Shown: in pieces, positions 15,436 through 54,445 of the stretch
How positions within the stretch are numbered: the stretch's first letter is position 1
How the letters are laid out: the number at the start of each line of letters is the position of its first letter
Source of the DNA: an uncultured Chloroflexia bacterium
GTDB taxonomy: Bacteria; Chloroflexota; Limnocylindria; Limnocylindrales; CSP1-4
Direction: 5' to 3'
Length of the DNA stretch: 64,000 bases
Assembly: GCA_963705425.1 (NCBI GenBank)
Contig: CAVPJO010000006.1
Coordinates: 60,599-124,598 of the forward strand
The notes under the pieces: generated by a model
Seen by the model: only the letters and a program-made list of their open reading frames with translations
Told to the model about the DNA's origin: nothing
Databases searched by the model: none
Position numbers and translations under genes: made by a program

Positions 15436-16044
15436 TCAGGTGCGCTCGAGCACGACCTCGTTGACGGCACCGCGGACGATGGTCCAGGCGCGCAGCTCGG
15501 GCGGCTCCACCGCGAACGAGGCCAGCAGGTAGATGGCCTCCGGGAAGGCCGCCAGGCCGATGTCCGTGGGCGACGGACTCGGCGGTGAGGCCACGTGTGA
15601 GTGGACGATGGCCCACACCACCTCGTCGTTCTCGTCGATCTGCTCCAGCAGCTCGAGCTGCTCCATGGGGTCCATCAGGTAGCGGTACGGCGACTCAGCC
15701 ACGTTGCGCATGCCCACGAAGCGCGAGGGCACGCCGCCATCTTCGGCGACCCGGTCGGCAACCAGCACGCCGCAGCCCTCGTTGGGCAGCGCAGCACGGA
15801 GCCAGGACACGACCTGCGCGCGGACGGCTGCCGGGATGCGAGCAGAGGCCGGCACCCACGGTGGTCCGCCGTCCGGCGCTGGTCCACCGCCGGCCATGCG
15901 CCGGCCCTCCGCCAGGCCACGATCGGCGGCCCGCTGCCAGGCCTCGACCTCAGGCACGACCTGACCGCCACCGCTGACCGCGGGCTCATCTGCCGATGAG
16001 AGCACCTCGGGTGCGCGGTCGGGGCGCCGCGGGTCGCTCACCAC
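15436..16044 (-). CDS. mec: JAMM/MPN+ metalloprotease Mec+-like (CysO-cysteine peptidase). The start is uncertain and may be at 15897
   Basis: JAMM motif AIVHSHVASPPSPSPTD and upstream EGCGVL. Sits immediately downstream of cysM and cysO. Confidence 0.7.
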   Translation of the reverse strand: MVSDPRRPDRAPEVLSSADEPAVSGGGQVVPEVEAWQRAADRGLAEGRRMAGGGPAPDGGPPWVPASARIPAAVRAQVVSWLRAALPNEGCGVLVADRVAEDGGVPSRFVGMRNVAESPYRYLMDPMEQLELLEQIDENDEVVWAIVHSHVASPPSPSPTDIGLAAFPEAIYLLASFAVEPPELRAWTIVRGAVNEVVLERT

Positions 16045-17057
16045 AGGTTGAGGCTGTCGATGTCATCGCCCTCGGCGTCGAGATCGCGGGTCCAGACGTC
16101 TTCGCTGAGGTACTTCCAGCCACCGTCGGCAAGCAGGGCCACGATGGTGCCGCGCTCCATCTCGCGGGCCAGCTGCTTGGCCGCCACCATCACCGCCCCG
16201 CAGGAGACACCGGCGAAGATGCCCTCCTTCTCGGTCAGCTCACGCAGGGACTCGATGGCCTCGGTGTTGGAGACCAGGAACTTGCCGTCGATGACGGTCG
16301 GGTCGAAGATCTCGGGAATGAAGCCCTCGTCGAGCGAGCGCAAGCCCTGCACCGTCTCCCCGGGCAATGGCTCGGCGGCGTAGATGCGCACCTCGGGATT
16401 GTGCCGGCGCAAGCGTCGGCCTACACCCATCAAGGTGCCGCCCGTGCCCAGACCGGCCACGAAGGCATCGACCTCGGGGCAATCGGCGATGATCTCCTCG
16501 GCCGTGGTCTCCTCGTGCGCACGGGGATTGGCCGGGTTGCCGTACTGGTACGGCATCACGAAGCGCGAGTCCTTGGCCACGAGGTGCTTGGCCAGGGCCA
16601 CGGCACCGTTGGAGCCGAGATGGCCGGGCGAGTCGATGACCTCAGCGCCGAACAGGGCCAGCAGCTGCCGGCGCTCCATGGTCACGTTGTCGGGCACGAC
16701 CACGGCCACTCGATAGCCCTTGCGCCGCGCGATCATGGCCAGGCCGATGCCCGTGTTGCCGCTGGTCGGCTCGATGATGATCGAGTCCGGCCGCAACCGG
16801 TCGGAGGCTGCGAGGTCCTCCATGAGGTACTTGGCCACGCGGTCCTTGACCGAGCCTGTCGGGTTCATGAACTCGAGCTTGGCGTAGAGGCGCACGTTGG
16901 GATTGGGGCAGACGTTGGGCACCTCGACGAGCGGGGTGAAGCCGATGGCATCGACGATGCTCGGGAAGCGTCCGCCGTGCCGCGCGTTACCGCCGTGGGC
17001 GTGCGGCCGGAGCGCGTCGACCTCGGCGCCTGACTGTCGTTCCGTCGTCGAAGTCAC
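16038..17057 (-). CDS. cysM: Cysteine synthase CysM-type (PLP-dependent O-phospho-serine sulfhydrylase family)
   Basis: GSVKDRVAKYLMEDL (PLP lysine), GNTGIGLAM and GLGTGGTLMGVG motifs. Intact 339-aa ORF. Confidence 0.85.
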   Translation of the reverse strand: MTSTTERQSGAEVDALRPHAHGGNARHGGRFPSIVDAIGFTPLVEVPNVCPNPNVRLYAKLEFMNPTGSVKDRVAKYLMEDLAASDRLRPDSIIIEPTSGNTGIGLAMIARRKGYRVAVVVPDNVTMERRQLLALFGAEVIDSPGHLGSNGAVALAKHLVAKDSRFVMPYQYGNPANPRAHEETTAEEIIADCPEVDAFVAGLGTGGTLMGVGRRLRRHNPEVRIYAAEPLPGETVQGLRSLDEGFIPEIFDPTVIDGKFLVSNTEAIESLRELTEKEGIFAGVSCGAVMVAAKQLAREMERGTIVALLADGGWKYLSEDVWTRDLDAEGDDIDSLNLW

Positions 17058-17072
17058 GACGAGCAGACCTCG

Positions 17073-17348
17073 CTAGCGACCCCCGGCCATGGCCGGCAGC
17101 AGGATGATCTCGTCGCTGTCACCGACCGGCGTGGCCAGCTCCTGCTCGTAGCGCACATCACGTCCGTTGACGTAGACGTTGACGAAGCGGTTGAGTGAAC
17201 CGTCCTCGCTGAAGATCTGTTCTCGCAGACCGGGGAACTGCTCGAGCAACAAATCGAGGGACTCGCCGACGGTGGAGCCGGTGACCTCGACCTTCTTCTG
17301 GTTGCCGGCCTGCGCGCGCAGCACCGGCGGGATCCGGACCGCAGTCAT
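17073..17348 (-). CDS. cysO: ThiS/MoaD-fold sulfur carrier protein CysO-like, ending GG-R
   Basis: 91-aa ORF ending ...DEIILLPAMAGGR*. ATGA overlap with the upstream E1-like gene. Next to cysM and the JAMM gene. Confidence 0.75.
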   Translation of the reverse strand: MTAVRIPPVLRAQAGNQKKVEVTGSTVGESLDLLLEQFPGLREQIFSEDGSLNRFVNVYVNGRDVRYEQELATPVGDSDEIILLPAMAGGR

Positions 17349-18529
17349 GCGTTCACCCCCATCGTGACGGCTGGAGTGGTGGGCAGTGCGAAGACGCCGT
17401 CACCAGCCGGCTCGGCGCTCTCGCCGTCGCCGCAGGCCGGGCACTTCGGGTCGCGCTGTAGCCGGAGCTCGCTGAAGGCCCCGTCGAGCGCATCGTAGAT
17501 GAGCAGTCGCCCGCTGAGCAAATCGCCGATGTCGAGCAGGACCTTGAGGCCCTCTGTGGCCTGCAGCAGGCCCATCACGCCGGGCACCACGCCGAGCACA
17601 CCGGCCACCGAGCAGCCGGGCGCCAGCTCGGGCGGCGGAGGTGTGGGGTACAGGCAGCGATAGCAGGGGCCCCGGTTGGGCTTGAACACCGTGAGCTGGC
17701 CCTCGAAGCGGAAGACCGAGGCATGGACCACGGTGATGCCCGCCTTGACCGCGGCGTCGTTGAGCACGTAGCGGGTCTCGAAGGTGTCGGTGCCGTCGAA
17801 GATGAGGTCGTAGCCGGCAATCAGCTCCTCGACGTTGTCGGGCCCCAGCATGACCTCGCGGGCCACGACCTTGACGTCGGGATTCAGGTCGGCGATGGTC
17901 ATCTTGGCCAATTCCACCTTGCGCATGCCGACGCGGTCGGTGCGATGGATGATCTGGCGCTGCAGGTTGGAGGCATCGACGACGTCGAAGTCGACGATGC
18001 CGATGGTGCCCACACCGGCCGCGGCCATGTACAACATGGCCGGCGAACCGAGCCCACCGGCGCCGATGAAGAGGACCTTCGAGTCGAGCAGCCGGGCCTG
18101 ACCTTCGACCCCGACTTCGGGGATGAGCAGGTGCCGCGAGTAGCGCGCCTTCTGCTCGCTGCTCAGCACGGTGGGCTGCTCCCAGGCGCGACCCTCGGAC
18201 TTCCATGCCTGGAAGCCGCCGCTCATGGAGGCGACGCTGGTGTAGCCCATCTCCAGCAGCGTCTGGCCGGCGAAGAGCGAGCGGATGCCGCCGGCGCAAT
18301 AGACGACGATGGGTGCCGCGCGGTCGGGTGCGAGCGCTTCGATGTCCTGCTCGATGTAGGACTTGGAGAGGTGCCGCGCACCGCCGGCGTGGCCCTGCTC
18401 CCACTCGCTTTGCTCGCGCACATCGAGAAGGATGGCGCCACGCTGAGCGGCCTGTTCAGCTTGCGCCGTGGTCACCTCACGGACCTGCGCTCGTGCCTCG
18501 GCGAGGAGGTCTCGGTATGACTTGGTCAT
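17345..18529 (-). CDS. Rhodanese-E1 (ThiF/MoeB) fusion adenylyltransferase/sulfurtransferase, MoeZ-like but with the rhodanese domain at the N-terminus
   Basis: N-terminal rhodanese domain with the active-site loop VVYCAGGIRS. E1 Rossmann motif LFIGAGGLGSPA. Two CxxC pairs (CYRC, CPAC). Confidence 0.85.
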   Translation of the reverse strand: MTKSYRDLLAEARAQVREVTTAQAEQAAQRGAILLDVREQSEWEQGHAGGARHLSKSYIEQDIEALAPDRAAPIVVYCAGGIRSLFAGQTLLEMGYTSVASMSGGFQAWKSEGRAWEQPTVLSSEQKARYSRHLLIPEVGVEGQARLLDSKVLFIGAGGLGSPAMLYMAAAGVGTIGIVDFDVVDASNLQRQIIHRTDRVGMRKVELAKMTIADLNPDVKVVAREVMLGPDNVEELIAGYDLIFDGTDTFETRYVLNDAAVKAGITVVHASVFRFEGQLTVFKPNRGPCYRCLYPTPPPPELAPGCSVAGVLGVVPGVMGLLQATEGLKVLLDIGDLLSGRLLIYDALDGAFSELRLQRDPKCPACGDGESAEPAGDGVFALPTTPAVTMGVNA

Positions 18530-23967: not shown

Positions 23968-25031
23968 AGTCGCGGGTCATCCTCTCCGAGTGAGAAGGGC
24001 GGGTAGCGGTCGACCATCAGCATCAGATAGGCCATCACGCGGAAGCCCCATCGTATGAACCCGCCGACGAGGGTGTACATCAGGTCGGCCTGGCGGCCCA
24101 GGAACAGCACCGGTGCCCACATGAACAGGTACAGGATGCCGACCAGGATGCTCAGGAACATCAGCACGATGAAGTGCGGGATGAGCAGGATGCCGCGCAC
24201 CAGGATGCCCAGCACGGGGATGCCCCAGAGCCGGTTGATGCGCACGCCTTCGTCGAAGCGCACGCTCACCGGATGGTCTTCGCCCGAGAGCGAGAAGGGC
24301 GGGTAGGTCGGGGTGAGCAGCTCGTAGTAGGCCTGCACGCGCGTGCTCCAGCCCATCAGACCGCCGATCCAGCGGTAGCCCCAGCCCGGGAAGCGACCCA
24401 GCATCAATACCGGGATCCAGGTCACGAGGAGCATCAACACGGAGACGATGGCCAGCAGGAACAGGACGAGGAAGTGCGGGAGGAGCAAGACCCAACGCAC
24501 CATCTGGCCGATGATGGGGATACCCCAGAGGCGGTTGATCCTGGCCTCGCGGTCATACGAGACGTTGACCGGATAGGCGTCGGGCGCCAGCGGATAGGCG
24601 GGCGGCGGCTGCCACATCGGCTCCGGCTGCTGAGGCGGGTAGCCGGGCTGCTGAGGCGGGTAGCCGGGTGGCGGCGGGTAGCCGGGCTGCTGAGGCGGGT
24701 AGCCGGGTGGCGGCGGGTAGCCGGGCTGCTGAGGCGGGTAGCCGGGCGGCGGCGGGTAGCCGGGCTGCTGAGGCGGGTAGCCGGGCGGCGGCGCGTAGTC
24801 GGGCGGCGGCGCGTAGTCGGGCGCGGCTGCCCCGTCGGGCGGAGGCTGGTAGGCCGGTGGAAACGCCTGCTCCTGAGGCGGCTGATAGGCAGGCACCGCA
24901 TCAGCCGGCGGCGGCGCAGGGTCGAACGGCGGCTGATAGCCGGGCGGAGGCGCCTGCCCCTGCGGCGGCTGTTGGGCATCGGTCGCGCGCTGATCCTGCG
25001 GCGACGCTGGATCCTGGGAATCCCACGTCAT
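23964..25031 (-). CDS. Pro/Gln/Tyr-rich repeat protein with two C-terminal DUF4389-like membrane domains
   Basis: N-terminal PPPGYPPQQPGY repeats. Duplicated motif (V/I)RINRLWGIP(I/V)(I/L)G...LL(L/I)PHF(L/I)VL, each followed by hydrophobic helices. Confidence 0.6.
   Translation of the reverse strand: MTWDSQDPASPQDQRATDAQQPPQGQAPPPGYQPPFDPAPPPADAVPAYQPPQEQAFPPAYQPPPDGAAAPDYAPPPDYAPPPGYPPQQPGYPPPPGYPPQQPGYPPPPGYPPQQPGYPPPPGYPPQQPGYPPQQPEPMWQPPPAYPLAPDAYPVNVSYDREARINRLWGIPIIGQMVRWVLLLPHFLVLFLLAIVSVLMLLVTWIPVLMLGRFPGWGYRWIGGLMGWSTRVQAYYELLTPTYPPFSLSGEDHPVSVRFDEGVRINRLWGIPVLGILVRGILLIPHFIVLMFLSILVGILYLFMWAPVLFLGRQADLMYTLVGGFIRWGFRVMAYLMLMVDRYPPFSLGEDDPRL
24627..24820. repeat. Near-perfect tandem repeat of a 39-bp unit (21-mer + 18-mer) inside the coding sequence
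   Basis: gctgctgaggcgggtagccgg / gtggcggcgggtagccgg repeated about 5 times. Encodes PGYPPPPGYPPQQ units on the minus strand. Confidence 0.85.
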
Positions 25032-28482: not shown

Positions 28483-29636
28483 TCAGGCTATGGTCTCACC
28501 GAGGGAGACGCCCATGTCCCGGGCGGTCTGGACCCAGGAGTGGTCGAGCGGCACGGTCTTGCGTTTGCCCACGACCCGGCCGAGCGGCACCGGCCTGGCC
28601 TCCTCGCCCTTGGCTGCGATCATCACGCCGAACTCCCCGTCGGCGATGGTGCGTGCACAGGCTGCACCAAGACGGGTGGCCAGCAGCCGGTCCGCGGCTG
28701 ACGGTGTCCCACCGCGCTGTACGTGCCCGAGGATGGTCACGCGTGACTCCAGGTTGGTCAGGCGTTCCAGCTCCTCTGAAAGGACCAGCGTGGTGTTGTG
28801 GAGATGGGACGAGATCTCAGCGATGCGAGCCCGCGACGCCTTCATCCTGCGGTCACGGTCGGGGCCCGATCGCTTGAGCTTCCTGGCCTCCGCGAGGGCA
28901 TCCTCGGCAGCGCGCAGTGCGGTCGCGCGGTCGCTCGGCAGCGCGCCTTCGGACACGGCCACGATGCTGAACGAGCTGCCGGTCCGGTGCGCTGCCGGAT
29001 CGCCTCGGCGACGGCTTCGATGTCGTAGGGGATCTCGGGGATGAGGATGACGTCCGCACCACCGGCCATGCCGGCCCCCAGCGCCAGCCAGCCCGCGTTG
29101 TGGCCCATCACCTCGACGACGATGATGCGGTGGTGGCTGTGGGCGGTGCTGTGCAGCCGGTCGATGGCCTCGGTGGCGATGCCCAGCGCGGTGTCGAATC
29201 CGAAGGTGATGTCGGTCATGGCCACGTCGTTGTCGATGGTCTTGGGCAGGGTGACGACGTTGAGGCCCTTCTTGAGCAGCCGATAGGCGTTCTTCTGGGT
29301 GCCGCCGCCACCCAGGCAGACGAGGGCGTCGAGCTGATGGTTGTGATAGTTCTCGACGATGACATCGGTCATGTCCAGCGTCTGCTGTCCCACCGTCATG
29401 CGGTGCGGCTTGTCGCGGCTGGTGCCCAGGATGGTGCCGCCGACGGTGAGGATGCCCGAGAGCTGCGACCGGTCCAGGGGAACGGTGCGGTTCTCCATCA
29501 GGCCACGGAAGCCATCCCGGAAGCCGATGACCTGCATGTCGTAGGCGCCGATGGCCGTCTTGCCCACGCCACGGATGGCGGCGTTGAGGCCGGGGCTGTC
29601 ACCACCCGCTGTCAGGATGCCGATCGTCTTGGTCAT
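28483..29636 (-). CDS. pfkA: ATP-dependent 6-phosphofructokinase, one frameshift near 28970
   Basis: [34 protein letters not shown] and [10 protein letters not shown]. The C-terminal part (SIVAVSEGA...GHVQRGG) lies in another frame. Confidence 0.8.
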
Positions 29637-31411: not shown

Positions 31412-32499
31412 ATGACACTCGCTGCCGGACCCGACGCCACCCACGTGCTCGACATCGACCTCGGTCCGGCCCGTGAGGTCGCGACCGCCTACGTTGCGGG
31501 CGGCACCGTCCCCTGCGCTGCGTTCGGGGTCGTCGATGCCGCCGGACGCTGCAGCTTGGGGCTTCGTCGACGGTGCCGGAGGGCCAGTCGGACCCAAGAC
31601 CGTCTTCTTCCTGGCCTCCATCACCAAGGGCATCGTGGCCACGGCGATGATGCGCTACGTCGACGAGGACCGGCTCGACCTGCACGCGCCGCTGCTGCGC
31701 TACCTGCCCGAGCTCGAGGGCAGCGCTGCCGCCGAGGTCAGCGCCTGGCACGTGCTCACACACACCTCCGGGCTGCCGGACATGCCCATCGATTCATTGC
31801 GCCATGACCGACCTACCTACCAGCGCACGCTTCGAGTTCATCCGGGAGGCTGCCCCGGTGGCCGCGCCTGGTGCCGAGTATGCCTACGCCTCAGCCTCGT
31901 TCATCCTGCTGGCCGAGACCATGGCGCGCCTCAGCGAGACCACCTTCGCCGAGGCGCTCTCGACGCGCCTGACCGGTCCCCTGGGCATGAGCGAGACGAC
32001 CTTCGACGCACGGCCGATGCGCGCACGGGTGATGCCCGTGCATGGCTTCGGCGTCGACAACCGGCTGGTCGCAGGAGGTCCTGCTGCGCTTCCTGGCCAC
32101 GGCGCAGCTGCCGGGCGGCGGTCTGTTCGGCACGCTCCCCGACCTGCTGGCCTGGGCCGCGCGCTACTGCCGTCCGACCCCCTTGCGCGCGGGACCACGT
32201 GTGCTCTCACAGGCGGCCATCGACGAGATGACACGCAACCACATCGCCGGCCTGACGGCAGGTGTCCGAGGACGGCGTCGAACGCGAGGCTCATCAGGCC
32301 TTGGGCTGGCGCAAGCCACAGCCTGGATGGCCGGGGTCCGAGCGCGTCGTTCACGCACGGCGGCATCACCGGCGGGCGGCTCTGGGTCGATCCCGATGCG
32401 GGCTTCGCCGTCGTCTTCTTGACCAACCTCTGGCATGCACCCATCGAGGTGTCGATCGCCGTCATCGACGCGGTCTACCGCGCACGAGACGGAGGCTGA
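31412..32499 (+). pseudogene. Serine hydrolase of the beta-lactamase/transpeptidase fold (class C/esterase-like), at least 4 frameshifts
   Basis: SITKGIVATAMM (SxxK) appears in one frame. Further family-like blocks (YAYASASFILLAETMARL, LTGPLGMSETTF, ...SFTHGGITGGRLWVDPDAGFAVVFLTN) appear in other frames. Confidence 0.55.
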
Positions 32500-33394: not shown

Positions 33395-34935
33395 CTAGAG
33401 CAGCTCTCCGTGTGCCGCGCCGGTGGGCTCGCCCTCAGCCGGCCGTGGTTCCTCGCCGGGCGCGTACGCACGGGCCTCGGGGGCTTCGGGGGCTTCTCCG
33501 GAGGCGAGACTGGCCTGCGCCGGAGCCGCCTCACCTTCGATGGCGCCGACGCCGTAGGGCACCCACTTCCCAGGTGCCTGCAGCCGGTGCGCCTCCGTGT
33601 TGCCGCGGGTGTGGATCTGGGCATGACCGGCCGGCTCGATCCACATGGCATCGCCCTGGAGCAAGCCGTGCACCCCGCTCTGGCCGGGCTCGGACCGCTC
33701 GTTGCGGCAATAGGCACAGGCCCGCCGATCGTGGGGCGTGTACTCGGTGGGCTCCTCGTAGGTGGTGATGTAGCCCTCGTAGTTGCGCAGCACGACCTTG
33801 TGGTCGGAGTAGCTGATGAGGTAGTTGGGCATGACCGGGATCTTGCCGCCACCGCCGGGTGCGTCGATCACGTAGGTCGGCACTGCGTAACCGCTGGTAT
33901 GGCCGCGCAGGCCCTCGATGATCTCGAGGCCCTTGCCCACCGGGGTACGGAAGTGACCGGCACCGGCCACCAGGTCGCACTGGTAGAGGTAGTACGGCCG
34001 GATGCGGTTCTCGACCAGCTTGTGCACGAGATCGCGCTGGATGTGAACGCAGTCGTTGACGCCGGCCAGGAGCACGGATTGGTTGCCGATGGGCACACCG
34101 GTGCGGCTCAGCTGGTCGACCGCGCGCGAGACCTCGGGCGTGATCTCGTTGGGATGATTGAAGTGAAGGTTCACCCACAGCGGGTGGTACTTCTGGAGCA
34201 TCTCACAGAGAGCCTCGTCGACCCGCTGGGGCATGAAGACCGGGACACGCGTGCCCAGACGGATCGATCTCGACGTGCGGGATCTCGCGCAGACCGCGCA
34301 GCACGCGTTCGAGAAGCTTGGGCGACATGGTCAGGGGGTCGCCACCCGAGAGCAGCACATCCCGAACCTGTGGCGTGCGGCGCAGGTACTCGAGCTGCGC
34401 CTCGAAGTCCGCCGTGTTGAAGTTCTGCGTGGCGTCGCCGACGATGCGCGAGCGCGTGCAGTAACGGCAGTACGAGGCGCACTGCGTGGTCACCAGCATC
34501 AGCACTCGATCGGGATAGCGGTGCACCAGCCCCGGGACCGGGGAGTGCTCGATCCTCGCGCAGGGAATCCTCCATCATCGCCGTGAAGGCCTGCTGCTCG
34601 TCGCCGAGCGGCATCACCTGCCGGCGGATGGGATCGTTCGGATCGGTGGCATCGATGAGGCTGATGAAGTAGGGCGTGATGTCCACGCGGAACTTGTCCG
34701 GCGCGCCGAGTCCCTCGCGTTCGTTATCGGTGAGCTCGAGGATCTGGCCGAAGGTCTCGAGGTCGTTGACGCGGTTCGAGAGCTGCCATTTCCAGTCGCC
34801 CCACTGCTCGTCGGACACGTCGTCGTAGTAGGGCGCGCGGCGGCTGCGAGCGGGTTGCCCGTCGGGGCCCAGCGCCAGGGCCGGGTCGCGCGGGTTGATC
34901 CAGTTGGCTTGTTCGTTGGTGGTGACCACGGTCCC
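33395..34935 (-). pseudogene. kamA: Lysine 2,3-aminomutase (radical SAM, KamA family) with a Pro/Glu/Ala-rich C-terminal tail, 2 frameshifts
   Basis: Radical-SAM CASYCRYCTRSR (CxxxCxxC). SGGDPL. A C-terminal KamA block containing GVPIGNQSVLLAGVND and YYLYQCDLV. Shifts near 34545 and 34260. Confidence 0.7.
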
Positions 34936-35379
34936 TCCTGCGTGGTCCGCGATGATACTCCGCGCGCCGCGCGACCTCCGCTGCGCGATCGCCCGCTGCG
35001 CGACCTCGGCCCCATGGCGGCCCGGATGGTGCCCGGACGCACCGCCCCACGTGGCTCGATAGGGCCATATACCGGCGGTCCGATCGGGCGTAGTTTCCAT
35101 GGGCTGAACCCGCGTGGCCATCGAGCCCAGGTTGCGGATCCGGCGCATTCATCCCCATCCCGGATCAGCTGAATACGACCAACGGGGCTTCATCGAGCCG
35201 AGCACCTGCCCCGTGCCCCAGCCGCGGCGACGTGCCCGGGCCACCGCTTCATCATCTATCCTGCGGGGCCCCACCGGCGCTACGGAGACCCTCACCGAGG
35301 TCCTCTGCCCGCTGCGGTGGCGCATTCGCGCCGGGCCTTGTCGTCGTCATCGGCTCCTCCGCCATCGGAGAACGACCTG

Positions 35380-35649
35380 ATGGACAAGATACGAGTCGCG
35401 GTGGCCAGTGCCACCGAAGGGGTCGCCGACCTGCGACCCGTGCTGATGTTACGCTCCCTCTTCTCGCGGGCCACGGGTGCCAGCGAGAGCCAGCGTGGCC
35501 AGGGCCTCGCGGAGTACGCGCTCATCCTGGCCGGTATCGCCGTGGTCGCGATCGCCTCGCTGGTCTTCCTCGGGGGAACCATCAGCGAACTGTTCTGGGC
35601 GCCCATCAACGTGGAGTTCGCCCAGATCCTTTCCAGGCTGGGCATCTAG
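35380..35649 (+). CDS. flp: Flp family type IVb prepilin (copy 1). An alternative start exists at 35446
   Basis: GQGLAEYALILAGIAVVAIASLVFLGG is the Flp motif (G/xxxxEY plus a hydrophobic helix). GGAG sits 9 nt upstream of ATG 35380. Confidence 0.75.
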   Translation: MDKIRVAVASATEGVADLRPVLMLRSLFSRATGASESQRGQGLAEYALILAGIAVVAIASLVFLGGTISELFWAPINVEFAQILSRLGI

Positions 35650-35912
35650 CCCTCCCTGGGCTGGGCATCCAGCCAGCACCGTCCGCCACTCGCGCTGAGC
35701 GGCCGCACACCGCTGCGGCCGTCTCGTGCTGCGCTCTTCGTTGTCCTCAATCAACGCTAAGTGACCAGATGGTCGATCCGCGCTTCCAATCCACTTTTTC
35801 CGAAGGTACTGTCTGACGACCGTCCCTGCGTGGTCGCGAGACCCGGGTTGTGGGGATTCGCAGGAACCTTGTTCTTGTGGCTTGCCGTTTTGCTAGGATT
35901 CCGGTCCTCATG

Positions 35913-36305
35913 ACTTGGGAGCGACTGCGAGTACTCGGCTACATCTGCGCCTTCCTGTTGTTGGGCGCGATCATCACCGCGCTGTATGGCGCATTCCGAA
36001 CAGAGTTGGAAGCGAGCCAGTTCATCGGTTTCTTCGGTGGTGTGTTGCTGGGCGCAGTGATGGTGGGCTTCCTGCTCATCATCTTGCTCGTACCGGAACG
36101 ACGGCGAACGGGATGGGTCGAGGCCATCACGACCGTCAACGCCAAGTACCTCTTCCTCGCGCTCATCATCGTGTGGGCACTGGCGATGGGGTTCCTGGCG
36201 AGCATGAACCTCGAGGTGAATACCGTGGGCGTCCCGGCCCTGATCGGGCTCTTCGCGGGCATCTTCATCTTCATGGGCTTCATCTGGTCGGTCATCGGAG
36301 AGTAG
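35913..36305 (+). CDS. Small polytopic membrane protein located between Flp pilin genes
   Basis: 4 predicted TM helices (LGYICAFLLLGAIITALYGAF..., FIGFFGGVLLGAVMVGFLLIILLV...). Confidence 0.45.
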   Translation, partial: TWERLRVLGYICAFLLLGAIITALYGAFRTELEASQFIGFFGGVLLGAVMVGFLLIILLVPERRRTGWVEAITTVNAKYLFLALIIVWALAMGFLASMNLEVNTVGVPALIGLFAGIFIFMGFIWSVIGE

Positions 36306-36533
36306 GAGGCAGCTAGCGCCTCATCGTCACCCGAGGGCGGCGACACGGTCGAGTCGAATCCGGCCTGGTCGACGCGCGTCTCCGGCCCGGGCACCAACGC
36401 GGTGATCCGCGGTTCGAGTCCCTCGCGCGACCTTCTCCCCGTGACCGCCGACGTCTGGAACACCGGATCGGGTTCCAGCGTCGAGGTCGGATGACCTGCA
36501 TCCCACAGAGATCCAACGGAGGGCAGCCCCGCT

Positions 36534-36722
36534 TTGACAGAACTCATCCGTCAGCTGGCCGCACTGCGGCTGGCCAATGACGAGGAAGGCCAGAGCCTGG
36601 CCGAGTACGCACTCATCCTGGCGCTCATCGCCGTCGTGGCGATCATCTCGCTCATCTTCCTCGGCGACACCATCGGCAGCTTGATGTCCTACATCGGCGC
36701 CACCATCGACCAGAACACCTAG
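36534..36722 (+). CDS. flp: Flp family type IVb prepilin (copy 2), TTG start
   Basis: GQSLAEYALILALIAVVAIISLIFLG. GGAGGG sits about 11 nt upstream of the start. Confidence 0.8.
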   Translation: MTELIRQLAALRLANDEEGQSLAEYALILALIAVVAIISLIFLGDTIGSLMSYIGATIDQNT

Positions 36723-37016
36723 TTCACACCAGAACGGGACAGATCACACATATCTCGCCAGGGACTGGTGCGCCAGCACCACCGAAGGTCCGGTTCCGGC
36801 ACCCCCAAGAGGTGCCATGGAAAGTCCTCAGGGCCAGCATCATCATTCTCGGCACTGAGGACGTGACCACTGGCCTGCCGGCCGTCCCTAGTGAACAGTC
36901 AGCGGCGGGGCTGTACCATCCGCCGAGCACGGAAGCCAAGTCGGCTGCCGAGCGTATTCATCCATCACCGGCGAACCGCTCAACGGAACGCCAATCACTC
37001 TAGGAGGACCATCACA

Positions 37017-37172
37017 ATGGTCGACTTCCTGCTTCGCCGCGACGAGGATGGCCAGGGCCTGGCCGAGTACGCGCTGATCCTGGCGCTTATCGCCATCATC
37101 GCGATCGCCGCCCTCATCTTCCTGGGTGGCGAGATCTCCGAGATCCTCTCGACGATCGGCGCCCAGATCTAA
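37017..37172 (+). CDS. flp: Flp family type IVb prepilin (copy 3)
   Basis: GQGLAEYALILALIAIIAIAALIFLGG. AGGAGG sits 9 nt upstream of ATG 37017. A terminator follows directly. Confidence 0.85.
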   Translation: MVDFLLRRDEDGQGLAEYALILALIAIIAIAALIFLGGEISEILSTIGAQI

Positions 37173-37200
37173 AGGCGCTGCTCTTCAAGAGCACACGAAC

Positions 37201-37234
37201 GGCCCGTCCCTTCCGGGGGGCGGGCCGTTTCTTC
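37201..37234 (+). terminator. Rho-independent terminator after flp copy 3
   Basis: GGCCCGTCCC-ttccgg-GGGGCGGGCC stem (10 bp, one G.U pair) followed by TTTCTTC. Confidence 0.5.
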
Positions 37235-37305
37235 ATGTCCGCGACCTCACCTGACACCGGTCCCTGAGCGCGACGGACCGCGCCAGCCACCTATCATCAG
37301 CGCGA

Positions 37306-38080
37306 ATGCCAGCCTCTACCCGCGATCCCCAGCCCCAGTCACGAGCCACCCCTGCGGGCTGGCGGGCGGGCGCCCCTGACTACGTCGGTGTCGGCACCGC
37401 ACGTTCGGGCACGAGCTGGTGGGACAGCCTCATCAACTCACACCCCTGCGTGAGCCGTCTGCCCGAGACGCCCAAGGAGGTCCACTTCTTCGATGCGCTC
37501 TGGGCGTCAGACCTGAGCACCGCGGAGATCGAGCGCTACCATGCCAACTTCGCCCGCCCCGAAGGCCACCTCTGCGGCGAGTGGACCCCCGGCTACATGC
37601 TTGACGTGTGGACGCCGGCCCTGCTCAGGCAAGCCGCGCCCGATACCCGTCTGCTGGTCCTGCTACGCGACCCCGTGGAACGCTTCCGCTCCGGGCGGAC
37701 ACTGGCCGAGAACCGCTTCACGGTCGGCTCCACGGCACGGGCCGCCGCCAATGCCGCCTTCAATCGGGGCATCTATGCCGACCAGCTGCTGCGCCTCTTC
37801 GCGGCGTTTCCGCGCGAGCACGTGCTGGTGCTCCAGTACGAACGGTGCGTGGCCGAGCCCCGCACCCAGCTCGAGCGTACCTACGCCTTCATCGGGCTCG
37901 AGCCGGAGATACCCACCTGGCATCGACCCCGGCGCACGTGTCAATGAGTCGCCTGGCCCCAAGGTCGTGCTCAGCGAGTGGCAGGAAGACCAGCTGGTGC
38001 GCCGCTACGCACCCGAGAACGAACGGCTGGCAGCGCTGCTGCCGGAGTTCGACATCTCCCTGTGGCAGGCACCGCGATGA
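37306..38080 (+). CDS. Sulfotransferase family protein (PAPS-dependent, Stf-like), one frameshift near 37905
   Basis: 5'-PSB motif GTARSGTSWW and 3'-PB motif LLRDPVERFRS. The C-terminal 55 aa lie in another frame ending at 38080. Confidence 0.7.
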
Positions 38081-38924
38081 CCCTCAAGGCGGGGCTGCGT
38101 CGCCTGGCGGTGCGGGGCTCGCGCGCCTGGTATCGCTGGCGCGGCCCGCGACAACCGGGTCCGCCGGAGCCACCGGCCATCCCCGACGGCTGGCAGCGCG
38201 GGTCCACCCCACTACGTCGGCGTCGGCGCCCAGAAGGCCGGTACCTCGTGGTGGAACCGCCTCATCGAGGCTCATCCCGACGTCGTCAACGCGGGCGGCC
38301 AGCCCAAGGAGCTGCACTTCTTCGATCGTGCCTGGGAGACGCCCTTCGGTGCTGATGACGCGCGGCGCTATCAGCGCTACTTCCCCGTGCCGGAGGGCAA
38401 GGTCGCGGGCGAGTGGACGCCCGGCTACCTCATCGACTTCTGGACGCCCGAGCTCATCGCCCGGGCGGCACCCGAGGCCCGCATCCTCGTGCTGCTGCGT
38501 GACCCGCTGGAGCGCTTCCGCTCGGGGCTGACCCACCAGCTGGCTACCTCGCGTCAGCCGCTCGGCCACCGCGACATCCAGGGCGCCTTCCAGCGCGGGC
38601 TCTATGCGCCGCAGCTGCGGCGCGTGCTCGCGGCCTTCCCGCCCGAGCGCGTCTGGGTCGGCCAGTACGAGGCCTGCCGGGCCGACCCCGCGACGCAGCT
38701 GGCGCGCACGTACAGCTTCCTCGGCCTGGCCCCGCTTCGAGCTCAAGGACGATGCCTTCCGTGGCGAGGTCAACCCCACCACGCAGCAGAAGTTCGAGCC
38801 CTCGCCGTCGCTGCGGGCGTCGCTGCTCGAGGGCTATGCCAGGGACATGGCCCAGCTCCCGGAGCTGGTGCCTGGGCTCGATCTGTCGCTGTGGCCGAGC
38901 GCCGGCGAGGTCGGCCTGGGCTGA
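38077..38924 (+). pseudogene. Sulfotransferase family protein, tandem paralog of the preceding gene, 2 frameshifts
   Basis: After a shift near 38213 the frame reads GAQKAGTSWWNRL ... LLRDPLERFRS, the same two motifs as the paralog. Second shift near 38735. Ends at 38924. Confidence 0.65.
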
Positions 38925-38931
38925 GTGAGGC

Positions 38932-39618
38932 CTAGTAGCCGAACGTGAGCAGGATCGACTCCCAGTTGATCCACAGGTCCCAGGTGCCGGCGCCGATGAG
39001 CAGCACGCCGGAGATGATCTCGATCTTGCGGTGGTGGCGAGCCAGGAAGCGCACGACCGAGTCCTGTCGCGTCCGGGCCAGCACCGAGAGCAGCACCAGC
39101 GGCAGCCCGAATCCGAGGGCGAAGACGACGAAGGTGGCTACGGTCCCGACGGTCTCGGCAGCGCCCACCGAGATGGCCAGCGTGGCGATGAGGAAGGGTC
39201 CCGCACAGGGCAGCGCGATGGGGCCCAGGAAGACGCCGTACAGGTAGGCCTGGGAGAGAGGCCCGCTGGCGCCCGGGACCTTGACCGTCGGCGCTTTGAG
39301 GAACGGATTGATGCCGGCCAGCAGCAGCACGCCCAGCGTCACCAGCAGCAGGTCGATGATGGGGATGGCAAAGCCCAGCAGCGCGCCGATGGGAGCTGAG
39401 AGGGCGACCACGATGAGGCCGATGACGACCATCGAGGTGATGAGCCCGGCCAGCACCGCGAGGCCCAGGAAGCCGGAGATGCGGCGAGCCTTGCTGGTGC
39501 CCGCCTCGGCGCCGGTGGCGCCGGTCAGGTAGGCCAGGAATGCCGGGTACAGCGGCAGCAGGCAAGGACTCGCGGCCGAGGCGAGGCCGAGCGTGAACGT
39601 CGCGAGCAGTGCTTCCAT
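38932..39618 (-). CDS. ccdA: Cytochrome c-type biogenesis/thiol-disulfide transporter CcdA (DsbD_2 family)
   Basis: LASAASPCLLPLYPAFLAYLTG with a conserved Cys near helix 1 and a second Cys (ALPCAGPFL). 6 TM helices. Confidence 0.75.
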   Translation of the reverse strand: MEALLATFTLGLASAASPCLLPLYPAFLAYLTGATGAEAGTSKARRISGFLGLAVLAGLITSMVVIGLIVVALSAPIGALLGFAIPIIDLLLVTLGVLLLAGINPFLKAPTVKVPGASGPLSQAYLYGVFLGPIALPCAGPFLIATLAISVGAAETVGTVATFVVFALGFGLPLVLLSVLARTRQDSVVRFLARHHRKIEIISGVLLIGAGTWDLWINWESILLTFGY

Positions 39619-39699
39619 GGGCGGGCAGCCTAGGCATCGCACGGTGACGTGTTCGTGACGCGCATCACACGCGCATCGCGTTCGGTGACGTTCCTGTGA

Positions 39700-40972
39700 C
39701 TACCAGTCGAGCCAGTCGGCTGAGGCCTTCTTCATGGACAGCAGCAGGCGTCGGCCCTCACCCTTCGAGGGGTCGAGGAGGTTGGGCTGGCTGGTGCCGT
39801 GGATGATGTAGGGCCGCAGCCGAAGCTCCATGAGCCGGCCGCCGTGGAAGGTCGCCTCCAGCAGGGCCGACTCCATCGTGTTGGTAGACCAGTGCTGGTC
39901 GAAGATGAGGTTGCCCAGCGAGTACAGCACCGGCGTGCCGTCGATGTCCTCGATGGCGCCGGCCACGTGGCTGTGCCCACCGAGGACGAGGTCGGCCCCG
40001 GCCTTGACCCAGCGCTGCGGCATGGGCTGCGCATCCGGCAGCGGCTGGCGGGTGTACTCGACGCCCCAGTGCGGGAAGACGATGACGACGTCGGCCCGTT
40101 GCGCGTGGCCTTCCTGATGTCGGGCACGAGGTAGCGATCGAGGCAGGGCGTGGCACCTGCCGCCGGTCTCGGCAGCCCAGTAGGCCTTCACGAAGCCGAG
40201 GCAGGGGATGATGGCCAGGCGTGTCTCCCCGGCCTCGAGGTAGCTGACCTTGCGGGCCTGCTCGAGGTCCTTGCCGGCGCCGCCGAAGGCGATGCCGTTC
40301 TGGCGCAGGATGCGGCGCGTGTCCGTGATGCCGTCGGCTGCCGTAGTCGCCGATGTGGTTGTTGGCCAGCGAGAGCCAGTCGATGCCGGCGCGCGTGAAG
40401 ATCCTGGTCAGCTCCGGCTTGCCCGCGAAGCGCGTCCCGCTGCGGTGGAACGACGGCCGACTCGGTGACCGGCTGCTCGTGGTTGGCGATGGCCAGCTCG
40501 GCATCCTTGAAGAGCTTGCGCACCGCGCCCTTGTTCCCGGTGAGCACGTAGCGCGGCACGAGGTTGTCGTTGAAGACCGGGTCGCAGCAACCGTGGCCGG
40601 TGACCCGCGCGGTGCCGCCGTCGAAGGGGTAGTCCACGCCCTTGCCCTTGCGCACGACGGTGTCGTAGACGCCGCGGTCGGTGAAGGAGTCACCGCCCGC
40701 CACGAGCACCCACGTCCGGCGCCTGCTCCCAGACCTCGTTCTCGGGCAGCTGCCAGCGTCGACACGCTAAGGGCCAGTCCGCGATGTCCTTGACACGATC
40801 GTTGCCGATCAGCGAGACGCCGTCGACCTGGAGGCATGCGCATCGAGGGCGCACGTCGGTGGCGGCGACCAGGCCCAGTGCGCCCTTGCTCACGGCCTTC
40901 GGCCAGCCTGCCGAGGTCGCCGCGCCGCACGTCGGCATGGATCTCGATGTCCGAGCGCGTCGGCCAGCGCAT
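39700..40972 (-). pseudogene. CapA/PGA_cap family metallophosphatase-fold protein (poly-gamma-glutamate synthesis type). Multiple frameshifts. Related fragments and an N-terminal TM segment extend upstream to about 41480
   Basis: VLVAGGDSFTDRG ... AIANHE / WLSLANNHIGDYG / GGHSHVAGAIE...VLYSLGNLIFDQ blocks are distributed over three frames. Confidence 0.5.
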
Positions 40973-41548
40973 CGGCGATGCCCTCCTCGACGACGATCCG
41001 CCGGAAGCCCTGCCGCTCCGCCCGTCTCGAGCGCGCGCGCATGATCGCGCCTGGCTCGAGGCCCTCCTGCTTGGACCAGAAGCCGGCCACGGGCACGACC
41101 GGCATCGGCCGACTCCGACCCGCGCGTATGCCCGCTGCTCGGAGAGGCCCGCCTCAGCATCGGGGGATGGCGCGACAGGACGCGAAGACGGTGCCTCGCT
41201 CGCTGCGGGGCTGTAGCCAGGACTCGGAGCACGGATCCGTCTCGGCCAGCGCCAGCAGGATGCGTGGCGCGTCGGCCGCGGCCGGTGCGCCGGTCCCTGG
41301 TGATGTCATCGGGGCTGCCGGCAGCGACGGAGGGGGTGGCTGCGTCGGCGCCTCCTGGCCCTGCGCGTCGAGACGGCCACGGCGAAGCCGAACATCGCGA
41401 AGAGGAAGACCGCACCAGGGCGATGACCAGGATCTTCGACCGCAGTTCGGCGCGGCGCGGGTCGGTCGGAGCGTCGCTCATTCGGGCTCGTCGTCTCCGC
41501 TGTCGGCGGGCACGGCAACATCGCTGACGGATCGGCGAAGCCGGGACT

Positions 41549-45587: not shown

Positions 45588-46998
<1,411 letters not shown>

Positions 46999-51973: not shown

Positions 51974-54445
51974 GTGTCGCCGTTTCGATCGTCGCTTCGC
52001 CGCATCGTCCTTGGAGGCAGCTTCCGAGGACGATTCGGCCGCGCCTCAGTGCTCACCGCACTGGCACCCCTGCTGGCGCTGGCCCTGGTCTTCGTGACGT
52101 CGGCGCGAACCGATCTCGAAGGCGTGGCCAGAGAAAACCTGGCGAACCAGGCGCGCCTCCAGGCGACTGCGGTGGACAGCGTCCTCAAGAACGCAAGCGA
52201 GGCCGTGGGGGTGCTGGCGGCCAATCCCATCCTCCGCGATGAGGATGCGGAACCGGAACAGATCCGTCAGCAGCTCGACGCCTATAGCCAGTTCGACGAG
52301 ATCGTGCTCTTGCACCCGGCCGGAGTGGTCATCGAGGCTACGTCGTATCGCTTCTCCGGCCGTTGGGATGCGAACGCCGCCTTCCGTGGCGCGATGGCGG
52401 GGCGACAGGTCATGACACCGCCGCTCTTCTATTCCGATCCAGATCGACTCGTCGTTGAGCACGCCGCTCCGGTCATCAGAGACGGTGACGTCGTGGCCGT
52501 GGTCGTGGGTACCATGAACATGGATCGCGTTTGGCAGGCCCTCGACGACGTCACCATCGGGCGGTCCGGCTACTTCGCTGCATTCGACCAGCATGGCAAT
52601 GTCATCGCACACCCGGACAAGTCGCTGGTCCTCCGGAAGTTGGAGGGCTTCCCGTCCTCGAGCGATGGCTCGAGCGAGACTCCCGTTCGATACGTTCAGC
52701 CCGATGGAACGGCCCAGGTCGGCTACAGCGTGACCGTCCCATCCTCCGGGTGGCGCGTGGCTGCGCTCGAGCCGGAGGACGAGGCCTACGCTATCGCAGA
52801 TACGGCGGTGTCCAGGGTCTGGCTCGTGGCCATCGTGGCCCTGTTGATCGCGCTCGGCACGGTGCTCGTCGTGTCCCGCGCGGTCTCCAAGCCGATGGAG
52901 ACGGTGAACATGGCCATGCGCAGCATCGCCGACGGCCACCTGGAGCAGCGGGTCCGACCGGCAGGACTCGAAGAGATCGACCGGCTGGCGGGCTCGTTCA
53001 ACGCGATGGCCGCCGAGCTGGAGGAGCGCAGCGCTCTGCTGGATGCGGAGATGGCCGAGCGCGACCGCGCCGAGCAGCGCATCAAGTACCAGGCCTATCA
53101 CGACCCCTTGACCGGTCTGCCCAACCGGATGCTACTCAAGGATCGCCTGGACCTGGCCCAGGCGGATGCGCGTCGAAGCGGCGAAGCGTTGGCCCTGATG
53201 TTCCTCGACCTGGATCGCTTCAAGCTGGTCAACGATTCGATGGGTCACACGTTCGGCGACGAGCTGCTCTTGAGTGTCGCCGATCGGATCACCAGCGAGC
53301 TGCGGGAGGGTGATTCGGTGGCCCGTGTGGGTGGCGACGAATACGTCCTGTTGCTGCCGCGCGTGTCGGGCCCGGAAGAGGCCCTCGCGGCTGCTCACCG
53401 GGTCGTCGAGAGTCTGCGCGTGCCCTGGGAGGTGGACGGCAGGGAGTTCCACCTCACGGCCAGTATCGGGATCGCGTTGTACCCCGGTGACGGGGTCGAT
53501 GCCGAGTCGCTGATGCGGAACGCCGACACCGCCATGTATCAGGCCAAGGAAGAGGGGCGGGACCGCATCCGGGTCTTCCGAGCCGAGATGGACGAGAGCG
53601 TCCAGCAACGGGTGAGGCTCGAGCAGGACCTGCGCCTCGCGCTGCAGCTGGAGCAGTTCGTGCTCCACTACCAGCCCCTGGTCCATTCCGATACGGGTCG
53701 CGTCACCGGCATGGAAGCGCTGCTGCGCTGGGACTGTCCCAAGCGTGGACTCGTGCCCCCGGACAGGTTCATCTCCCTCGCCGAAGAGACCGGTCTCATC
53801 TGGGAACTCGGCCGCTGGGTGCTCAGGACGGCCTGCGCCCAGGTCCAGGCCTGGACCGCATCCGGGCAGATCGATAGCTTGTCGGTGTCTGTGAATGTCT
53901 CGGCTCGGCAGTTCCATGACATGGGCATCGTCGACGAGGTCCAAAGCGCCCTGGCCGAGACGGGCCTGCCTCCAGGCCAACTCGAGCTCGAGATCACCGA
54001 GAGCACCGCGATGCGCGACGTCGAGCACAGCATACGAACGCTCACCCGGCTCAGGGAGATGGGTGTGCGCGTGTCGATCGACGACTTCGGTACCGGCTAC
54101 TCCTCGCTCTCATACCTCAAACGGTTCCCGGTCGACATCGTCAAGATCGACCGCTCATTCGTGATGGACATCTCCCACGACCCCGATGATGCCGCCATCG
54201 TGGCCGCCATCATCGCCCTGGCCAGGAGCCTCAAGATGGAAACCGTGGCCGAAGGGGTCGAAACGGACGAACAACTCGCATTCCTGCAGGCGCACGGTTG
54301 CCCGTCATTCCAGGGGTTCCTCTTCAGCAAGGCACTGCCCCCAGCGGAACTGGTTCGACTGCTGGCCGACGGCGCATTCCGGGAATCCGAGCCGCGCGAC
54401 ACGACGATGCCAGCGCTCCGGCGGCAGCTCGCGCTCAGCCAGTAG
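51974..54445 (+). CDS. Membrane-bound sensory GGDEF-EAL protein (periplasmic Cache-like domain, HAMP, diguanylate cyclase and phosphodiesterase domains), MbaA-like
   Basis: TM helix, an about 250-aa periplasmic domain and a second TM helix. HAMP. RVGGDEYVLLL (GGDEY variant). EAL domain with GMEALLRW, DDFGTGYSSL and KIDRSFV. 823 aa, intact. Confidence 0.9.
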   Translation: MSPFRSSLRRIVLGGSFRGRFGRASVLTALAPLLALALVFVTSARTDLEGVARENLANQARLQATAVDSVLKNASEAVGVLAANPILRDEDAEPEQIRQQLDAYSQFDEIVLLHPAGVVIEATSYRFSGRWDANAAFRGAMAGRQVMTPPLFYSDPDRLVVEHAAPVIRDGDVVAVVVGTMNMDRVWQALDDVTIGRSGYFAAFDQHGNVIAHPDKSLVLRKLEGFPSSSDGSSETPVRYVQPDGTAQVGYSVTVPSSGWRVAALEPEDEAYAIADTAVSRVWLVAIVALLIALGTVLVVSRAVSKPMETVNMAMRSIADGHLEQRVRPAGLEEIDRLAGSFNAMAAELEERSALLDAEMAERDRAEQRIKYQAYHDPLTGLPNRMLLKDRLDLAQADARRSGEALALMFLDLDRFKLVNDSMGHTFGDELLLSVADRITSELREGDSVARVGGDEYVLLLPRVSGPEEALAAAHRVVESLRVPWEVDGREFHLTASIGIALYPGDGVDAESLMRNADTAMYQAKEEGRDRIRVFRAEMDESVQQRVRLEQDLRLALQLEQFVLHYQPLVHSDTGRVTGMEALLRWDCPKRGLVPPDRFISLAEETGLIWELGRWVLRTACAQVQAWTASGQIDSLSVSVNVSARQFHDMGIVDEVQSALAETGLPPGQLELEITESTAMRDVEHSIRTLTRLREMGVRVSIDDFGTGYSSLSYLKRFPVDIVKIDRSFVMDISHDPDDAAIVAAIIALARSLKMETVAEGVETDEQLAFLQAHGCPSFQGFLFSKALPPAELVRLLADGAFRESEPRDTTMPALRRQLALSQ

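Follow-up and report, generated by a model that had tools for sequence, protein, structure and literature searches.

Three Flp prepilin genes of a Limnocylindrales bacterium as a probable satellite of a distant tad locus, with a candidate structured RNA leader before flp3

We examined a 64-kb stretch of DNA (assembly GCA_963705425.1, contig CAVPJO010000006.1, 64,000 nucleotides starting at position 60,599; hereafter the window, with positions counted from its first letter) from a soil bacterium of the lineage Candidatus Limnocylindrales (Chloroflexota). The window carries three small genes, flp1, flp2 and flp3, which encode Flp-type prepilins and have no pilus-assembly genes around them. The locus is probably a satellite cluster of Flp (type IVb/Tad) prepilin genes that would be served in trans by a distant Tad machine. 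Its only new element appears to be the leader of flp3, which we propose, with moderate confidence, to be a conserved structured RNA that has no described counterpart.

The three flp genes and the tad loci of the order

The flp genes and the structures that follow two of them are:

35380-35649, + strand: flp1, Flp-type prepilin of 89 amino acids (aa), leader of about 40 aa, processing site ...SQRG/QGLAEYALILAGIAVV...
35671-35735, + strand: G+C-rich stem-loops of high stability 3' of flp1; a terminator scan marks a terminator-like site at 35714-35733
36534-36722, + strand: flp2, Flp-type prepilin of 62 aa, TTG start, leader of about 19 aa, processing site ...DEEG/QSLAEYALILALIAVV...
37017-37172, + strand: flp3, Flp-type prepilin of 51 aa, leader of 12 aa, processing site ...DEDG/QGLAEYALILALIAII...
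37197-37238, + strand: hairpin with a U-rich tail after flp3, resembling an intrinsic terminator (15-bp G+C stem, then UUUCUU)

An earlier note on this DNA, made from the sequence alone, had described three Flp prepilin genes that share a processing motif and differ in leader and mature part, and the description is accurate. All three open reading frames (ORFs) carry the G/XXXXEY signature (Glu at +5, Tyr at +6) ahead of a hydrophobic helix; each reads G/QGLAEY or G/QSLAEY and then ALILA(L/G)IA(V/I)(V/I)AI.... Besides the differences in leader length, mature Flp3 is 70% identical to Flp1 and 68% identical to Flp2, the Flp1 product has a longer C-terminal tail (...ISELFWAPINVEFAQILSRLGI), and Flp2 ends in ...IGSLMSYIGATIDQNT. 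The Pfam family Flp_Fap (PF04964) matched flp1 with E = 3e-4 (20.9 bits), flp2 with E = 1e-5 (25.6 bits) and flp3 with E = 2e-5 (25.0 bits), and homologs of Flp3 carry a precomputed PF04964 match and the JGI name "pilus assembly protein Flp/PilA". Orthologs of flp1 are called at 88-91 aa in relatives, the TTG start of flp2 is common to its orthologs, and the index of the contig collection lists a protein identical to Flp3 in 52 blocks (22 contigs read).

Loci of relatives were collected with a four-transmembrane (4-TM) protein, encoded between flp1 and flp2, as anchor; it was found in 57 species-representative genomes at 38-92% identity. All of these are Chloroflexota, and most are labelled Candidatus Limnocylindrales or "uncultured Chloroflexia" (MFD isolates). 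The earlier note had also seen no tad genes near the flp array, and this holds for the whole 64 kb. The T2SSE Walker A/Asp-box motif was found neither in the window nor within 10 kb of the fetched relatives' loci. Searches by tblastn with RcpC, CpaE, CpaF, TadB and TadC of Limnocylindrales gave no match at E <= 0.01 in the window or the satellite loci, and Pfam searches of the unidentified ORFs of the window returned nothing relevant to tad.

Machinery of this kind is present in the order. A homolog search with Flp3 returned mostly orthologs, plus a 60-aa relative, P0232, that is 81% identical to Flp3. The P0232 gene lies in a textbook tad locus, in the order HisKA_3, response regulator, HisKA_3, four flp genes, RcpC/CpaB, CpaE/TadZ, CpaF/TadA (T2SSE) and two T2SSF genes. 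The CpaF of this locus has relatives at 95-96% identity named "CpaF family protein [Candidatus Limnocylindrales bacterium]". The tad loci of the order follow the same plan, with HisKA_3, response regulator, HisKA_3, four to six flp genes, RcpC, CpaE, CpaF, TadB and TadC; the arrangement is also found on 1.8-Mb contigs of the ERZ250395xx metagenome series, to which several contigs with the satellite array belong as well. The Flps of the tad loci read ...RRDEDGQGLAEYALILALIAIIAIVALIFLGG..., and at greater length ...RRDEDGQGLAEYALILALIAIIAIVALIFLGGQVSKILSTVGNSV. They have the same cleavage site as mature Flp3 and are 72-82% identical to it, closer than either Flp1 or Flp2. The lack of tad machinery in the window is most likely explained by a distant tad locus of this type. 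No secretin was seen near the Limnocylindrales tad loci. Four of them (L067, L068, L071 and L072) combine four to six near-identical tandem flp genes with one divergent flp gene of the GQGLVEYGLI type; the response regulator between the two upstream HisKA_3 genes is of the GerE type, and the flanks hold PMT_2 and GT87 membrane glycosyltransferase genes.

Purifying selection acts on the array, which is conserved in more than 25 related species. For each gene we computed dN/dS, the ratio of nonsynonymous to synonymous divergence, against 13-23 orthologs (18-21 for flp1-3). The value is 0.22 for flp3 (dN 0.03, dS 0.15), whose product retains about 95% amino-acid identity, and 0.35 for flp2; flp1 is the fastest-evolving of the three, at 0.59 for the whole gene and 0.46 for the mature part. 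The 4-TM gene (0.21) and the gene for a DsbD-type protein at the end of the unit (0.27) give similar values. The flp ORFs are intact in 15-23 relatives per gene. Because they are conserved with dN/dS well below 1, the three flp genes are not decaying copies. The earlier note had reasoned that a complete tad cluster elsewhere with its own major flp gene, together with a lack of expression of these three copies, would mark them as spare or decaying. The first half of this holds, in that such a cluster, with its own flp array, does exist in the same order, but the idea of spare or decaying copies fails against dN/dS values of 0.22-0.59. The dS of flp3 is 3-4 times lower than that of its neighbours (0.15 versus 0.45-0.63), which suggests selection on the mRNA, for its structure or codon usage, or recombination between species.

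In the proposed arrangement, a TadV/CpaA-type prepilin peptidase encoded elsewhere would cleave the prepilins behind the conserved Gly of G/QGLAEY, and the Tad machine of the distant tad locus, which has a tandem flp array of its own, would polymerise them. The three Flps share the cleavage site and the assembly helix but differ in leader and C-terminal surface, and would therefore supply alternative or minor subunits of the filament. Control of flp3 would be separate, through its own structured leader, a perfect Shine-Dalgarno sequence and a terminator. The ribosome-binding site and terminator ascribed to flp3 in the earlier note are both there: TAGGAGGACC (GGAGGA) lies 7 nt 5' of the ATG, and the hairpin after the gene folds at -38.2 kcal/mol (z = -3.9), although a consensus terminator scanner did not detect it. 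From these features flp3 looks like a separately and strongly expressed unit. The segment 3' of flp1 (35645-35760) folds at -51 kcal/mol (z = -4.4) and may likewise act as a terminator. A spacer of its own does precede each flp gene, and the AT-richness that had been attributed to these spacers was borne out in part: their G+C contents are, in order, 0.68, 0.62, 0.69, 0.62 and 0.68 (range 0.62-0.69), versus 0.60-0.66 for the flp and 4-TM genes.

Several observations weigh against a satellite cluster served in trans. The Flp_Fap scores of all three Flps lie under the gathering score of 32.2 bits, and an NCBIfam search of the three gave no match. The tad locus and the satellite array were always on different contigs and could not be placed in one genome; a comparison of the records of four proteins showed no ERZ accession on both kinds of contig. 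Since these accessions increase with the MFD sample numbers, we read them as naming samples and not genomes. A Peptidase_A24 prepilin peptidase was not seen in the fetched DNA, including the 10 kb around the tad loci. Finally, sister lineages have a single flp gene 4 nt after the stop codon of the 4-TM gene, which could mean that the two form a functional pair; we return to this below.

Two further observations concern flp genes in relatives. In more distant relatives with three flp genes, flp2 has drifted, reading G/DHLLEY or lacking the G...EY motif (L070, 9536-9730; L026 and L027, near 10550), and flp2 may be the least constrained flp gene outside the immediate clade of the window. In L028, a second flp match 8 kb upstream, situated between BI-1 and cobalamin adenosyltransferase genes, had the look of a fragment, weak or frameshifted.

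The leader of flp3

The leader occupies one stretch of the spacer before flp3:

36777-37016, + strand: flp3 leader RNA (about 240 nt), conserved and structured, with the best-supported core at 36894-37016

Between flp2 and flp3, the 294 nt of spacer show the conservation of coding DNA, which the other spacers do not. Searches with nhmmer found the leader as one copy per locus in 32 relatives, all of them in three-flp lineages. A pattern scan of metagenome contigs added 34 loci, 31 of which are strong matches to a covariance model of the leader, bringing the copies in relatives and metagenomes to about 60. A flp3-type ORF lies directly 3' of the leader in 30 of the 30 strong metagenome copies with readable downstream sequence, and conversely the leader is present 5' of every flp3-type gene whose upstream region was readable. 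The covariance model had no match before tad-locus flp genes or single-flp genes. Matches of 24 bits in metagenome contigs L078 and L103 are not followed by a flp gene and were taken as chance.

The proposed secondary structure was evaluated helix by helix. In the named helices, 94-96% of cells are paired, versus 30-45% when the partners are slid; pairs with changes on both sides number 6-8 versus 0-5 in the slid controls, and the covariation score is 0.085-0.103 versus at most 0.05 in controls. The leader sequences are closely related and the helices were partly drawn from them, so this support is moderate. In an unconstrained all-against-all scan for covariation, phylogenetic noise prevailed, and the named-helix tests took its place. 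A long-range helix at the 5' end, pairing GUCC (columns 22-25) with GGAC (columns 142-146), was rejected, as column 143 varies without compensation.

Support is best for three hairpins, P3 (CGGCGG/CCGCCG, closing an invariant GGGCUGUA loop), P4 (GC-CGG-GCCC/GGGC-CCG-GC) and P5 (GGC...CCGC/GCGG...GCC), and for the helix of CUGAGGAC with GUCC-CAG. This helix is 96% paired, and its competitor, GUCCUCAG:CUGAGGAC, is 72% paired. The loops CAUCAUCAU, GGGCUGUAAYRU and GCGYAUUCAUCC are invariant, as is the Shine-Dalgarno sequence GGAGGA. GUCC and GGAC repeats form the competing helices, and one of these helices mimics the Shine-Dalgarno sequence; GAGGAC recurs in the Shine-Dalgarno region, and a GACCAU/AUGGUC hairpin lies over the start codon of flp3.

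The leader (36777-37016) had no match in Rfam 15 at E <= 10, cyclic di-GMP (c-di-GMP) classes included, and an Rfam search of the whole flp region returned nothing. Compensatory changes and a fixed position before flp3 are generic features of structured cis-regulatory RNAs, and the leader has both. The competing helices are only suggestive of a switching mechanism, and the leader may have a regulatory role. The bolder proposal, that the leader represents a new class of RNA switch that sets the production of one Flp pilin in response to a ligand, a protein or temperature, is tentative and on present evidence rather unlikely, although the invariant loops, the competing helices and the start-codon hairpin would suit a switch.

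The 4-TM gene, the sulfotransferases and the quality of the assembly

The genes interleaved with and flanking the flp array are:

33395-35040, - strand: KamA/AblA (lysine 2,3-aminomutase), divergent, the most constant neighbour of the 4-TM gene, with two frameshifts
35910-36305, + strand: 4-TM membrane protein gene (131 aa), uncharacterised, the conserved anchor of the locus
37306-38080, + strand: sulfotransferase 1, 3'-phosphoadenosine 5'-phosphosulfate (PAPS)-type and HS3ST-like, with a 1-nt insertion near 37911; intact 258-aa ortholog in L004
38077-38924, + strand: sulfotransferase 2, paralogous to sulfotransferase 1, with its start codon overlapping the stop codon of that gene (ATGA); broken near 38196 and 38730
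38932-39642, - strand: DsbD/CcdA-type membrane protein, at the end of the unit; Pfam DsbD_TM in an ortholog with 66% identity (tblastn)

The small 4-TM protein noticed between the flp genes is real and conserved (ORF 35910-36305). Its family has 1121 database relatives; no Pfam domain is present in any of the 120 matches listed, and the few of these that bear a source name are called "hypothetical protein" or have a name that plainly cannot be relied on. An NCBIfam search gave no match. An AlphaFold2 model built from 36 sequences is of low confidence (predicted local distance difference test score, pLDDT, 66.8; predicted template modelling score, pTM, 0.36). By these comparisons the protein is not a recognisable pilus component.

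The surroundings of the 4-TM gene change with distance from the window. Close relatives (4-TM identity >= 72%) have KamA on the minus strand and flp1, the 4-TM gene, flp2, flp3 and two sulfotransferase genes on the plus strand, and in many of them the DsbD gene on the minus strand comes next. Lineages at middle distance have KamA, the 4-TM gene and, after 4 nt, a single flp3-like flp gene, followed by OsmC and MMPL and with no sulfotransferase. The most distant lineages have KamA, the 4-TM gene and OsmC, without flp. These gene orders indicate that the 4-TM gene predates flp at this site; it would be the older resident, and the three flp genes would stem from one that was inserted behind it and then amplified. 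Across Limnocylindrales (L029-L062), the 4-TM gene is almost always divergent to an AblA-type KamA gene, often with OsmC and MMPL next. A part for the 4-TM protein in the handling of beta-lysine or of osmolytes is conceivable from this neighbourhood. The intact ortholog of KamA scores 554.6 bits with NCBIfam TIGR03820 (cutoff 525.4).

The single flp gene of the middle lineages, which looks co-translated with the 4-TM gene, raises the question of whether the Flps are small membrane partners of the 4-TM protein, in a complex that works without a Tad machine. The absence of tad genes near any of the 57 loci and the uncharacterised state of the 4-TM family fit such a complex. However, the most distant lineages keep the 4-TM gene without flp, which makes the 4-TM protein independent of flp; in the window's clade the flp genes have spacers of their own, and flp3 its own leader and terminator. 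Flp3 is also 72-82% identical to canonical tad-locus Flps, with an identical cleavage site, and the 4-TM model (pLDDT 67, pTM 0.36) gives no structural support. We regard a partnership of this kind as improbable and keep to the satellite cluster with a distant Tad machine.

Two paralogous PAPS-type sulfotransferases do follow the array, as the earlier note had it. Their intact orthologs are 51% identical to each other, and both copies score above the cutoffs (27 and 22 bits) of the Pfam families Sulfotransfer_1 and Sulfotransfer_3: sulfotransferase 1 with 53.4 bits for Sulfotransfer_3 and 43.0 bits for Sulfotransfer_1, and sulfotransferase 2 with 35.3 and 32.7 bits for the two families. The motifs GTARSGTSWW (ARSGTSWW) and LLRDPVERFRSG are visible in the sequence; we take the former to be the 5'-PSB-like (5'-phosphosulfate-binding) loop and the latter the 3'-PB-like (3'-phosphate-binding) loop for PAPS. 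The nearest solved relatives, all remote, are PDB 3RNL and heparan-sulfate 3-O-sulfotransferases (HS3ST3A1), with E values of about 1e-12 to about 5e-12. NCBIfam has no name for either enzyme.

Both genes are frameshifted in the sequence as given, and the earlier note had reported this. Searches by tblastn with intact short-read orthologs place one frame change in sulfotransferase 1, near 37911 (frame 1 to 2), and two in sulfotransferase 2, near 38196 and 38730 (frames 1 to 2 to 3), so that neither copy in the window has the intact reading frame expected of a PAPS sulfotransferase; nucleotide alignments suggest single-base insertions in the window at all three sites. The breaks are there in the letters, but they are artefacts. 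The window, about 69% G+C, comes from an error-rich assembly, and single-base frameshifts run all through it, splitting housekeeping genes that relatives keep whole. Split stretches include fumarase (45591-46998), phosphofructokinase (PFK; 28495-29636), 31448-32487, 39779-41285 and the KamA gene (33395-35040). With proteins of relative L066 as reference, there is one frame change in PFK, four in fumarase C, at least four in a beta-lactamase-fold gene and at least three in CapA; the two in KamA were located by tblastn with intact short-read orthologs (frames -2, -3, -1). The sulfotransferase pair is whole in short-read contigs (258 and 281 aa) and in most related genomes, with a further intact ortholog of sulfotransferase 2 of 277 aa, and where long-read relatives have broken sulfotransferases, the breaks are at other sites than in the window. 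Because housekeeping genes are split too and orthologs elsewhere are intact, we attribute the sulfotransferase frameshifts to sequencing or assembly errors and expect the enzymes to be intact in reality. Apparent pseudogenes in this window are therefore unreliable.

The earlier note had raised the possibility that the sulfotransferases modify the pilins or a glycan attached to them, which would make the array and the enzymes one module. Three observations speak for this: the order flp3-sulfotransferase-sulfotransferase is found in every three-flp relative, Ser and Thr abound at the C-termini of the mature Flps, and the PMT_2 and GT87 glycosyltransferase genes beside the tad loci of the order make pilin glycosylation conceivable. 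Other observations speak against it. The three-flp relatives are of one ancestry, and their synteny may simply be inherited; the adjacency of flp and sulfotransferase genes exists in one subclade. In L044, a sister lineage, the orthologous sulfotransferase lies about 9 kb downstream of the 4-TM and flp genes, behind MMPL/AttH and CoA-transferase genes, and thus the adjacency in the window's clade looks like the product of rearrangement. The 10 kb on either side of the tad loci contain no sulfotransferase gene. Behind flp3 stands a strong hairpin terminator, and CCTATCATCAG, which has a TATCAT -10-like box and ends 4-5 nt before the ATG of sulfotransferase 1 (37283-37308), is kept in the window, L004, L005 and L012; it suggests that sulfotransferase 1 has its own promoter and possibly a leaderless transcript. 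The nearest solved relatives are carbohydrate 3-O-sulfotransferases rather than tyrosylprotein sulfotransferases (TPST/RaxST type), and a Tyr beyond the EY motif occurs in Flp2 but not in Flp1 or Flp3. Tyrosine sulfation of the pilins was rejected on these grounds. A link between the sulfotransferases and the pilins is positional only, and a shared module is quite unlikely; decoration of a pilin-linked glycan is a weaker proposal than the RNA switch considered above. Judged by their relatives and their position, the sulfotransferases most likely form a two-gene unit of their own that acts on a carbohydrate or lipid and has nothing to do with the pilins.

It is very unlikely that a tad locus was lost or moved and left the flp genes and sulfotransferases behind as decaying remnants. 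The lack of machinery nearby, the sulfotransferase frameshifts in the window, the comparatively fast evolution of flp1 (dN/dS 0.59) and the loss of the canonical flp2 motif in some distant relatives (L070) could be read this way, but the ORFs are intact in relatives with dN/dS well below 1, flp3 retains its protein sequence, leader, Shine-Dalgarno sequence and terminator, and the frameshifts are assembly noise that also affects fumarase, PFK and KamA; this explanation is largely refuted. Hardly tenable at all is the notion that the small ORFs are precursors of ribosomally synthesized and post-translationally modified peptides, with the radical S-adenosylmethionine enzyme and the sulfotransferases to tailor them and the 4-TM protein as exporter: short leader-plus-core peptides do stand beside a radical S-adenosylmethionine gene and tailoring-type enzymes, but that gene is an equivalog-level lysine 2,3-aminomutase AblA, the core peptides are canonical Flp helices near-identical to tad-locus pilins, and KamA and the 4-TM gene stay paired where flp and sulfotransferase genes are absent.

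Three other regions of the window were read by eye. A large sensor protein at 52067-54442 has motifs of the GGDEF type (GGDEY) and of the EAL type, which points to c-di-GMP signalling in this genome. On the minus strand, 15439-18439 holds a CysO/ThiS-like, Mov34/JAMM, CysM and MoeZ-like set beside SufU, SufS, SufC and an Rrf2 regulator, which would be a sulfur-carrier cysteine synthesis cluster of the Mycobacterium kind. Also on the minus strand, 23994-24875 encodes a protein in which a long proline-rich PPPGYPPQQPGY repeat precedes two hydrophobic repeat modules, and a similar gene is present in L028.

Relation to known systems

Canonical tad/flp loci keep pilin and machinery together, as in Aggregatibacter (flp-1/flp-2-tadV-rcpCAB-tadZABCDEFG) and Caulobacter (pilA-cpaA-F). 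The locus in the window resembles them in its G/XXXXEY site, its hydrophobic N-terminal helix and its paralogous flp genes in tandem, and relatives from the same order have RcpC, CpaE/TadZ, CpaF/TadA and TadB/C beside their flp arrays, as canonical loci do. It differs from them in that the machinery is absent from the 64 kb of the window.

For the flp3 leader, a parallel is the c-di-GMP-II riboswitch upstream of pilA1 in Clostridioides difficile, a pilin gene under riboswitch control. In both, a long structured 5' leader stands right before the gene of a type IV-family pilin, the major one in C. difficile; unlike the riboswitch, the flp3 leader has no Rfam match and is restricted to one subclade. 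The sulfotransferases share the domains Sulfotransfer_1 and Sulfotransfer_3 with the HS3ST-type enzymes and 3RNL, and the relationship is remote.

In a survey of 3,780 Chloroflexota genomes, about one third encoded a Tad pilus but no secretin (PMC12488501), which is consistent with a Tad machine in this class. The text and supplements of that survey make no mention of Limnocylindria or satellite flp arrays, and a literature search on Limnocylindria and pili found nothing. Compensation among pilin paralogs has been discussed for Bradyrhizobium (PMC12918737).

The nearest precedent comes from Bdellovibrio bacteriovorus HD100 and other Bdellovibrio-and-like organisms, which have flp genes that are not associated with tad (flp3, flp4) besides their tad-linked copies; these genes are regulated unlike the tad operon, and flp4 is expressed, needed for predation and not interchangeable with the others (PMC5430801). 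That flp genes lie far from the pilus-assembly genes is thus a known arrangement. As in Bdellovibrio, the flp genes described here are away from tad, and the tad-linked flp copies would be additional. Unlike in Bdellovibrio, an unrelated 4-TM gene lies at the centre of the three-copy cluster, the lineage belongs to monoderm-type Chloroflexota, the tad locus of the order has four to six flp genes, and one of the satellite copies has a long, conserved, structured leader.

Neither the idea of pilins without a machine nor that of pilin sulfation survives this analysis, and the remaining interest of the locus lies mainly in the leader RNA. The array itself offers a clean example, from an uncultured and abundant class of soil Chloroflexota, of selected pilin genes away from tad, and it would carry the precedent from Bdellovibrio over to a phylum of monoderm type whose pili have hardly been studied. 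The leader, as a well-delimited candidate regulatory RNA, could show how the composition of a Tad filament is regulated.

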